64,000 nt of DNA, taken from NCBI GenBank assembly GCA_963718975.1, contig CAVRBD010000007.1, forward strand, positions 5,722-69,721, given 5' to 3'. Below the pieces are notes generated by a model. It did no database searches and had not been told where the DNA came from. It saw only the letters and a list, made by a program, of their open reading frames with translations. Of the stretch, positions 37,621 through 58,622 are shown in pieces. A program made the translations under genes and the position numbers. How positions within the stretch are numbered: the stretch's first letter is position 1; each line of letters starts with the position of its first letter. This DNA comes from an uncultured Bacteroidota bacterium (lineage in GTDB: Bacteria; Bacteroidota; Bacteroidia; Chitinophagales; Chitinophagaceae).

Positions 37621-37722
37621 ACTACAGAGAAACACAGAGTTTTTTGAACTGAATAACTAAGAAATTTATTGCTCAAACATTCAGTTGTAGCCATTATATT
37701 AATTCTTTGCATCTCCATGTCA
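37621..37722. repeat. Degenerate cacagag-type element
   Basis: ctacagagaaacacagag resembles the arms flanking the GxxExxY gene. Confidence 0.4.
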
Positions 37723-46146: not shown

Positions 46147-46223
46147 ACAGAGATTTGGGAGATTGATATAATAAATGATTTCTCCGTGCAATTCTCATAA
46201 TTCTCTAGGTTCACTGTGGGCTA
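46147..46223. mobile_element. Gene-less MITE-like relative of the GxxExxY cassette
   Basis: Right arm ctccgtgcaattctcataattctctaggttcactgtgggcta aligns to 57831..57871; left arm gagatttgggaga is complementary. Confidence 0.55.
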
Positions 46224-56870: not shown

Positions 56871-57350
56871 ATGAACAAGGCATATTTACTGATAGGAGGC
56901 AATGAAGGCGACAGGCTGAACTATTTACAGCAGGCGCGGGATTACATCGCTGTTTTTTGTGGAGAAATTATACTGCAATCGGCCATTTATGAAACGGCAG
57001 CCTGGGGCAATGCCAGCCAGCCAAATTTCCTGAACCAGGTTTTATTGATTCACACTTCACTTGTGCCCGAAGTGCTGATGAGCAATATATTGATTATTGA
57101 AAGAAAAATGGGCCGCATTCGCCATGAAAAATATGGATCCCGAACCATTGACATAGATATACTTTTTTATAATGATGAAATCATAGACCTCCCTGAATTA
57201 AAAATTCCTCATCCCGAAATACAGAACAGAAAATTTGTGCTTGTACCAATGAATGAAATTGCGGGCAGTTTTATTCACCCGGTCTTCAAAAAAAATATAC
57301 GGCTTTTATTAGAAAAATGTGAAGACAAACTTGATGTGAAGAAATTCTGA
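56871..57350 (+). CDS. folK: 6-hydroxymethyl-7,8-dihydropterin pyrophosphokinase
   Basis: YETAAWG, FLNQV, RTIDIDIL, IPHP...R.FVL. Confidence 0.93.
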   Translation: MNKAYLLIGGNEGDRLNYLQQARDYIAVFCGEIILQSAIYETAAWGNASQPNFLNQVLLIHTSLVPEVLMSNILIIERKMGRIRHEKYGSRTIDIDILFYNDEIIDLPELKIPHPEIQNRKFVLVPMNEIAGSFIHPVFKKNIRLLLEKCEDKLDVKKF

Positions 57351-57390
57351 ATATAGTTTCGGGCAATTCGTATTTCTTTGTGGTGAAAGG

Positions 57391-57867
57391 CCACTGAGAA
57401 CCCCAGAGACAATTGAGAGCCGCAGAATATTTTTTACAACAAACCTTATAATATGGAAATAAATAAGATTACTGAAACTATTATCGGCTGTGCGATTGAA
57501 GTGCACAAACAATTAGGCCCAGGGCTTTTAGAATCTGCTTATGAAACTTGTCTTTTTTATGAAATATCAAATGCTGGTTTACATGTTCAAAAACAAGTTG
57601 GGATGTCATTGGTTTATAAAGAAATCAATCTTGAACAAGGTTATCGTTTGGATATGTTAGTGGAAAATTGTGTTGTTATTGAAGTGAAAATGGTGGAAGC
57701 AATAAATGATGTGCATATTGCACAAACGTTGACATATTTAAAATTATCAGGAGCAAAAATTGGATTGATACTTAATTTTAATGTATTGAAATTAACAGAT
57801 GGAATAAAGAGATTGATTGCCCGCAATTAACTCCGCGGTTCTCATTTATCTCTGCGGTTCTCTGTGG
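57391..57867 (+). mobile_element. Putative mini mobile element: 36-bp inverted repeats enclosing a GxxExxY gene
   Basis: Left 57391..57426 versus the reverse complement of right 57832..57867: 30/36 identical by hand. Confidence 0.6.
57453..57830 (+). CDS. GxxExxY protein (PD-(D/E)XK-like nuclease)
   Basis: LGPGLLESAYE, YRLDMLV, IEVK, Q..TYL. Confidence 0.92.
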   Translation: MEINKITETIIGCAIEVHKQLGPGLLESAYETCLFYEISNAGLHVQKQVGMSLVYKEINLEQGYRLDMLVENCVVIEVKMVEAINDVHIAQTLTYLKLSGAKIGLILNFNVLKLTDGIKRLIARN

Positions 57868-57876
57868 GCTAGTAAC

Positions 57877-58509
57877 ATGAACTATCACTATATCACTATT
57901 GAAGGAAATATCGGCGCGGGCAAAACAACGCTCGCTCATTTACTTGCAAAACATTTTAATGCAAGATTGATATTGGAACAATTCGCCGACAATCCTTTTC
58001 TTTCAAAATTTTATGAAAATCCGAAGCAATTTGCTTTTCCGCTGGAGCTTTTTTTTATGGCAGAAAGATATAAGCAGTTGAAAGAATTGGTGCATACAAA
58101 AGACATGTTTCAGAATGTTACCGTTTCGGATTATCTTTTCACCAAGTGTTTGCTGTTTGCCAAAGTGAATTTGCCTGATGACGAATTTCGCCTTTACCAA
58201 AAATTATTTGAAATTATTTATCAGCAAATGGTGCGGCCGGATATTGTAATTTATTTACATTCGCCTGTTAGCAGGCTTCAGGCCAATATTAAAAAAAGAA
58301 ATCGCAGTTACGAACAATCTATTCCTGATTCCTACCTCTTCGAAATTCAGGAAGCATATACAAGTTATATCAAACAGCACAATCTCAAAACCATTTATAT
58401 CGATGCGTCAAATGCAGATTTTCTTGGCAACAAAAAGCATTTAAAAGTTGTGCTTGATGCACTTGAAAAAGATTATGAATCAGGCCAACATTATTTTGTT
58501 TTGCCGTGA
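57877..58509 (+). CDS. Deoxynucleoside kinase
   Basis: IEGNIGAGKTT, FMAERY, RNRSYE. Confidence 0.9.
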   Translation: MNYHYITIEGNIGAGKTTLAHLLAKHFNARLILEQFADNPFLSKFYENPKQFAFPLELFFMAERYKQLKELVHTKDMFQNVTVSDYLFTKCLLFAKVNLPDDEFRLYQKLFEIIYQQMVRPDIVIYLHSPVSRLQANIKKRNRSYEQSIPDSYLFEIQEAYTSYIKQHNLKTIYIDASNADFLGNKKHLKVVLDALEKDYESGQHYFVLP

Positions 58510-58620
58510 GAGGGTTTAAGGTGTGAGGTATAAGGCGTAAGCAATACAATGGATGCCACGCCCTAAACCTTCCAGCTACACCACTCTTCAAACCTTAAGC
58601 CTTAAACCCTAAACCTCTAA
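58507..58620. repeat. Heptamer inverted repeat
   Basis: agggttt aaggtgt gaggtat aaggcgt ... caaacct taagcct taaaccc taaacct. Confidence 0.75.
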
Positions 58621-58622
58621 AA

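Follow-up and report, generated by a model that had tools for sequence, protein, structure and literature searches.

The window analysed here is a 64,000-nt stretch of DNA (G000:C7:5722-69721) from the genome that carries the studied cassette, termed G000. The cassette lies between the housekeeping gene folK (HPPK; 56871-57350, plus strand; 133.6 bits on TIGR01498, with a match to PF01288) and a deoxynucleoside kinase gene (dNK; 57877-58509, plus strand; 137.8 bits on PF01712), two genes that are adjacent in all 24 of the congeners examined. Between them, and enclosed by inverted-repeat arms, is a GxxExxY/PDDEXK_3 gene (57453-57830, plus strand) whose 125-aa product scored 147 bits on TIGR04256 (GxxExxY; cut-off, 35) and 140 bits on PF13366 (PDDEXK_3; cut-off, 22). 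The start codon of dNK is 7 nt downstream of the right arm. Exact-protein look-ups with the cassette protein, FolK and the product of a downstream MFS gene returned matches confined to one 4-kb contig with the same arrangement, and a look-up of the 210-aa dNK returned no record.

The arms form an inverted repeat (I1) of 39 nt (57388-57426 and 57832-57870) that is 82% complementary, with 405 nt between the arms. The left arm (57388-57426, plus strand) consists of the terminus (A)GGCCAC followed by two 19-nt units, AGAACCCCAGAGACAATTG and AGAGCCGCAGAATATTTTT, and the right arm (57819-57870, plus strand; inverted repeats I1 and I2, direct repeat D9) of two 19-nt units followed by the terminus GTGGGCT. 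The general structure is that of a terminus, (A)GCCCAC, plus two 19-nt units built around CRCNGAG-like heptamer cores. Similarity between the two right-arm units (57824-57842 and 57843-57861) is 84%; the inner unit overlaps the final codons and the stop of the GxxExxY gene, and the stop codon ends 1 nt upstream of the right arm of I1. The ungapped inverted-repeat score of the cassette was 21.5, which is above the median (8), the 99th percentile (14.5) and the 99.5th percentile (18.1) of the scores of 1483 random ORFs of 100 to 170 aa from the same genome. An earlier sequence-only reading of this DNA had described a GxxExxY gene of the PD-(D/E)XK class between inverted arms with 30 of 36 positions matching, a stop codon 1 nt from the right arm and D...ExK residues retained. 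The profile and inverted-repeat scores bear out the first of these claims, the 36 positions lie within I1, and the remaining details were found as described.

A different element was observed on the other side of dNK. Directly 3' of the dNK stop, at window positions 58505-58622, is a gene-less hairpin of TAAGGYN-type heptamers (DNA fold, -17.7 kcal/mol; z = -3.6), the units of which resemble the arms of a four-helix-bundle gene at G000:C32:122973-123296. The kinase gene therefore has a different repeat element on each side.

The GxxExxY motif of the cassette protein corresponds to G24-E27-Y30, and the catalytic-type residues D67 and E77-x-K79 are kept. H18, G22, E27, D67, E77, K79, Y95, G104, N108 and F109 were invariant in 77 homologues. 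PF13366 was the sole Pfam match, and neither a GIY-YIG domain (cd10448) nor a Y1/HUH domain was found in the protein. An AlphaFold2 model (pLDDT 94.7) gave as its top Foldseek matches Cas4 SSO0001, LHK-exonuclease, lambda exonuclease and the AdnAB nuclease domain, with modest scores (E values from 6e-3; TM about 0.5). A search of PDB sequences with a paralogue profile gave chance matches to S100 proteins only and no solved structure. On the basis of its structural neighbours, the modelled protein is a minimal RecB/Cas4/lambda-exonuclease-like PD-(D/E)XK nuclease core, and the nearest solved relatives of this fold act on single-stranded DNA or DNA ends. The PF13366/GxxExxY family, which has a very large prokaryotic membership, is listed as being of unknown function (PMC3424549); the portions of the literature on GxxExxY/PDDEXK_3 covered by our search held no treatment of family function or of repeats.

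One copy of its own repeat element surrounds the GxxExxY gene, and gene-less copies of the same type are dispersed in the genome. The terminus of the cassette arms, CTCYGCGGTTCTCTGTGGGCTA, recurs in G000 without the gene, and approximately 10 gene-less loci with this terminus were found, either as hairpins (C6:64566-64672, C6:65160-65215, C49:12843-12911 and C18:80905-81010) or as solo arms (two on C66 and one each on C42, C13, C24 and C30). The terminal 22 nt or so of the right arm are common to these copies. The sequence-only reading had proposed empty copies at 46147 and 37621 of the window. The former (46147-46223, plus strand) is a real but decayed member of the arm family: its right arm has the terminus and inner block in common with the cassette arm and aligns with it and with five other gene-less termini, and its hairpin is weak (z = -1.0). 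At the latter (37621-37640, plus strand) there are two CACAGAG-like units alone, with neither a partner arm nor a hairpin found, and the site is a possible remnant rather than a confirmed copy. The existence of gene-less copies is thus upheld, with better examples elsewhere in G000 than the two proposed. In the C18 hairpin both arms carry the same three differences from the gene-bearing copy, and the arms therefore change in concert. At the same site in relatives there is a related CACRGAG hairpin (G003), a decayed array (G001) or nothing (G019), so that some of the gene-less copies, too, are old.

Several further features of the dispersed repeats were observed. The RNase P RNA of G000 (G000:C6:64566-65215) is bracketed by two gene-less hairpins of the cassette arm family. 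Heptamer arrays of quite another kind occupy both positions in G003, G004 and G001, so that the intergenic site is fixed while the type of repeat in it is replaced. Of the 13 array hits of CRCDGAGNNNCRCDGAG in G000, 12 are on the reverse strand of their contigs, the better-kept arm being almost always the one written CTCTG...GTGGGCT; such a strand bias would not be expected, contig orientation being in principle arbitrary. Another dispersed element, of about 60 to 90 nt with a AGAGTGCGACGCAAC core, was seen at G000:C6:65250-65345 and at about 46246 of the window; 40 matches to it were listed in G001 and about 32 in G003 (46 and 36 overall, including flanking genes).

We next considered the level at which the arms might act. 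They pair in both the MFE and the centroid fold of a 501-nt stretch, and no intrinsic terminator was found between folK, the cassette and dNK, so that co-transcription of the three is likely. Such features would be expected of an RNA-level cassette of the 23S rRNA IVS kind, in which the arm stem in a folK-cassette-dNK transcript would be cut by RNase III, releasing or insulating the ORF, and the units would be unrelated to the activity of the protein. The IVSs of Coxiella and Leptospira are likewise units of about 0.4 to 0.5 kb with a small ORF (S23p) in an inverted-repeat loop, and the Coxiella IVS is cut by RNase III and has tandem heptamers adjoining its ORF (PMC4990558). Nine four-helix-bundle "IVS protein" genes of G000, of the S23p family, share the frame of the GxxExxY cassette. 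The cassette differs from an IVS in lying between protein genes rather than within rRNA (helix 25 or 45) and in carrying an ORF of another family. An Rfam scan found no rRNA at the cassette and no family at or near its gathering score; there were three sub-threshold matches (E values of 0.04 to 0.5), none of them on the arms. Nor do the arms bear any sign of selection for RNA-specific pairing: their mismatches show no sense-strand G.U excess (35 sense versus 40 antisense; p = 0.64) and are mostly transversions (128 versus 75 transitions). Identity between arms is 90% in the unit cores and 72% in the spacers, with a period of 9 to 10 nt, and both solo arms and long one-stranded tandem arrays occur. 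Taken together, the G.U result, the conservation of the cores and the solo and tandem arrays favour recognition of the units in DNA, as hairpin or duplex, over recognition of an RNA stem, although RNA processing may also take place. We consider the RNA-level explanation of the cassette to be improbable.

The proposal that other GxxExxY loci be inspected for arms was followed up. G000 encodes eight GxxExxY genes, one of them frameshifted, and each is flanked by inverted arrays or hairpins with a unit type of its own (CACAGAT, CGCAAAG, CACGGAT, CGCGAAT and CACTGAA among the paralogues) and is matched by cognate gene-less copies of that type. Five of the eight were at or above the 99th percentile of the null for inverted-repeat score. 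For the 80 closest homologues in other genomes (55 to 79% identity), 27 of the 79 testable loci reached the null 99th percentile and 50 the 95th, and these counts understate the presence of arms because the scoring was ungapped. The arms of the homologues are nearly all made of CRCNRAG heptamers with a period of 9 to 10 nt, and framed homologues were found in many neighbourhoods and phyla. The nine four-helix-bundle genes of G000 (TIGR02436, "23S rRNA IVS protein"/S23p family) have the same frame with other units (unit period, 7 to 8; six of the nine score at least 15). Since these are not nucleases, the frame need not depend on a nuclease.

Some of these loci depart from the general pattern. 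The paralogue L006 (G000:C66:183122-183472) has lost both conserved glutamates (E27 to V and E77 to Q) and is also the copy without matching arms, with one hairpin type upstream and a different type downstream. The frameshifted gene (L008/L009; G000:C31:6918-7269) still has CGCAAAG-type arms on both sides, and internal stop codons are present in about six of the 80 close homologues from other genomes. At G000:C29:32391-32946, 47-nt arms enclose a 141-aa ORF that has a hydrophobic segment at its N terminus and matches no family. These arms have the terminus TGTCTGAA and GGATT units in common with a GxxExxY cassette on C21, pointing to another cargo in a frame of this kind. G000 also has IS200/RAYT-like Y1 transposase genes (G000:C66:185316-186051, C34:4091-4794 and C17:51984-52660) with GC-rich inverted flanks of their own, so classical REP/RAYT-type systems exist alongside the GxxExxY and four-helix-bundle cassettes.

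The distribution of the repeats was then compared with that of the gene across genomes, most of which are MAGs of 70 to 100% completeness. The terminal 18-mer of the arms was matched 13 times in G000 and not at all in 39 of 40 relatives, a reversed-pattern control gave no hits, and three genomes with an orthologous cassette had 9, 3 and 2 hits. Hits beyond the cassette's own arms were present in three of four cassette-bearing genomes and in one of 40 others (Fisher p = 0.0012), a comparison confounded by linkage and descent; in G042 there were no copies other than the cassette's own arms. G003 differs from the strict 18-mer pattern at a single base; with a looser pattern of two units, G000 had 13 array hits, G003 37, G027 11 and G034 159, against 0 to 3 elsewhere. 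GxxExxY genes were found in 14 of the 41 genomes and, within the genus, only in G000, G003, G001 and G019. Arrays of at least 10 copies occurred in 4 of the 14 genomes with a GxxExxY gene and in none of the 27 without one (p of about 0.01), again subject to linkage and descent: the gene is physically linked to its arms, and common descent would by itself yield some association. Three genomes with a homologue of at least 52% identity had no arrays of the tested pattern. In G034, a relative from the same order, the 159 hits include long one-stranded tandem runs and a dense array cluster immediately beside its GxxExxY gene (G034:C1:1072957-1074365 and 1177024-1177791).

These comparisons bear on the possibility that other machinery, such as host recombination, slippage or the genome's own IS200/RAYT-like genes, spreads and maintains the repeats, with GxxExxY as a passenger or as a protein that uses the units as operator sites for self-regulation. 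Species differ in the array types found at the intergenic sites beside rnpB and after an amylase gene, so there is turnover whichever gene is present, and both the RAYT-like genes and the non-nuclease ORF on C29, in arms resembling those of the C21 cassette, are consistent with this explanation. Against it, arrays of this unit class with at least 10 copies were found only in genomes with GxxExxY genes, the flanks of the RAYT-like genes are quite different from the cassette arms, and the GxxExxY paralogues each have a matching unit type of their own. On balance, this explanation seems quite unlikely to us.

The sequence-only reading had further proposed that gene and arms together form a selfish mobile unit of about 480 bp. 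Under this explanation the cassette would transpose or home autonomously with the nuclease as its sole enzyme, and the copy between folK and dNK would be an insertion. Consistent with this, the terminal inverted repeats around the gene resemble those of an insertion sequence, framed homologues are spread over many neighbourhoods and phyla, and the family has a patchy distribution, with GxxExxY genes in only 4 of the 25 genomes searched within the genus (G000 and 24 congeners). At the folK-dNK junction the gene was absent from all 24 sampled congeners, most of which have gaps of 0 to 50 nt. A recent insertion was considered on the basis of this absence and was rejected, the closest homologues being orthologous at the same junction. 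These homologues (L043, L044 and L045; 76 to 79% aa identity) lie at exactly this folK-dNK junction in three other species, with GGCCAC termini as in G000 and a right end 7 to 11 nt upstream of the dNK ATG. The GGCCAC terminus and the heptamer cores are kept in both arms of all four cassettes, though dS is saturated.

The divergence of the cassettes is that expected of vertical descent. In a dNK tree, L043 to L045 form a well-supported clade and G000 is sister to G003 (support, 99/97), followed by G004 and G001. Protein identities among the cassettes are 83% between L044 and L045, 80 to 81% with L043 and 76 to 79% with G000; they track the dNK topology, ((L044,L045),L043),G000, and the level of dNK identity (76 to 89%). 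The dN values were 0.12 to 0.17 for the cassette gene, 0.07 to 0.17 for dNK and 0.34 to 0.43 for folK, with dS saturated, and omega was below about 0.06 (0.049 for the sole measurable pair). The cassette protein is therefore under strong purifying selection. The dNK of G000 is closest to that of G003 (90%), which has no cassette, rather than to those of the cassette-bearing clade, and import by recombination is for this reason not supported. At the same junction, gene-less fillers of 107 to 130 nt are present in G003 (130 nt), G004 (128 nt) and G019, and 46 nt in G001; the G003 filler is a hairpin belonging to a different dispersed family, of which that genome has more than 30 copies. Given the shared junction and a divergence matching that of dNK, the cassette is an old, vertically inherited resident, and one old gain followed by repeated loss in sister lineages is the best account, one which the fillers of G003, G004 and G019 support.

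At this junction a conserved motif, yATTTCTTTG, was also observed between the folK stop and the left arm (57371-57380, plus strand). It occurs about 20 to 30 nt past the folK stop, at the same place in G000, G003, G004, G019 and L043 to L045, and is thus kept in all seven genomes with a cassette or filler there, despite saturated synonymous sites. It may be a regulatory element.

The orthology of the cassettes weighs against autonomous mobility. Four species are occupied at one site with congruent divergence and no excess similarity that would indicate transfer, G000 groups by its dNK with a species that has no cassette, and G000 has no near-identical gene-bearing copies, its paralogues being only 32 to 55% identical to the window protein and none of them therefore recently copied. 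No copy was seen to have moved. Inspection of the sequence showed no target-site duplication at the cassette, as the earlier reading had also noted, or at the gene-less copies, and Pfam and TIGR profiles detected no transposase domain in the cassette. A protein as constrained as dNK would be unexpected for an immobile selfish gene, and to our knowledge no PD-(D/E)XK nuclease carries out strand transfer alone. The proposal of a recent or demonstrably mobile unit is accordingly not sustained. With four species sharing the junction, the locus indeed comes close to the fixation that the sequence-only reading had itself named as counting against mobility. We regard an autonomous mobile element as unlikely.

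The long residence of a gene within its own repeat recalls known partnerships of enzymes with dispersed repeats. RAYTs are single-copy genes inherited vertically with their REPINs (10.1101/2022.05.22.493013, PMC5581495), and the earlier analogy to RAYT/REP holds in several of the respects tested. Inverted copies of the gene's own repeat stand on either side of it and gene-less hairpins are dispersed; there is one gene copy per repeat type, with paralogues at most 55% identical; and inheritance has been long and vertical at a fixed locus in four species with congruent divergence. The repeats also tend to occur with the gene, an association confounded by linkage and descent, and some nuclease-bearing genomes are without arrays. 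The differences are in the enzyme, which is a PD-(D/E)XK nuclease rather than a Y1/HUH transposase, in the arms, where heptamer-cored units in phased arrays take the place of a single palindrome, and in the size of the repeat family, which is small (about 10 loci). Ssn nucleases cut hairpin repeats (NTS) that flank their own genes (PMC11893778), and the cassette likewise has a small nuclease gene of a single domain with its dispersed repeat on either side, with many cognate nuclease-repeat pairs. Ssn, however, is a GIY-YIG enzyme with demonstrated activity on single-stranded DNA, whereas the cassette enzyme is known from sequence and model, and each NTS repeat is itself a hairpin, whereas the flanks of the cassette are mutually inverted and enclose the gene. 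The authors of the Ssn/NTS study note an IS-like architecture and discuss possible domestication (PMC11893778). With insertion sequences and MITEs the cassette shares terminal inverted repeats, repeated subterminal units and gene-less derivatives, but it lacks a transposase, a target-site duplication and multiple near-identical gene-bearing copies, and it has stayed orthologous across species. Since its enzyme is neither HUH nor GIY-YIG, the cassette falls outside both REPIN/RAYT and Ssn/NTS.

We therefore favour, at roughly even odds in our judgement, the view that the locus is an old, vertically inherited copy of a REPIN/RAYT-like or Ssn/NTS-like nuclease-repeat partnership with a different enzyme fold. 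From the comparative data, this partnership looks like a long-lived one rather than a freshly inserted jumping gene. The protein would recognise the unit arrays or hairpins as DNA, most likely in single-stranded form or as extruded hairpins, and would cut there. Cutting would create, homogenise or maintain the repeat population, or restrict DNA carrying the repeats, and the gene-bearing copy would stay in place and persist by descent. That the nuclease itself cuts or propagates the arms is purely our inference.

A broader version of this partnership is doubtful but conceivable. Under it, GxxExxY proteins would be enzymes dedicated to a large class of repeats that replicate within genomes, paralleling REPIN/RAYT, in which a minimal Cas4/RecB-like PD-(D/E)XK nuclease, rather than an HUH or DDE enzyme, reads phased heptamer arrays in DNA hairpins and causes them to be copied or homogenised, its own gene being kept over very long times through vertical descent. 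The four-helix-bundle "IVS proteins" would then be a second family of readers.

The present analysis adds that the cassette is orthologous at a fixed locus and that its protein is strongly constrained, together with a comparison of gene and repeat across the genus. If such nucleases act on the arrays around their genes, a second enzyme fold, after GIY-YIG Ssn, would be tied to dispersed hairpin repeats, and REPIN-like persistent repeat populations would extend beyond HUH transposases. The locus is a good test case: the four orthologous cassettes provide natural variants of both protein and arms, the cassette has been lost from the sister species, and the repeat family is small enough for its members to be counted. 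Cognate nuclease-site pairs could become single-stranded DNA tools, as proposed for Ssn (PMC11893778). Should its members act on the arrays that frame them, the PF13366/GxxExxY family would gain a testable function.
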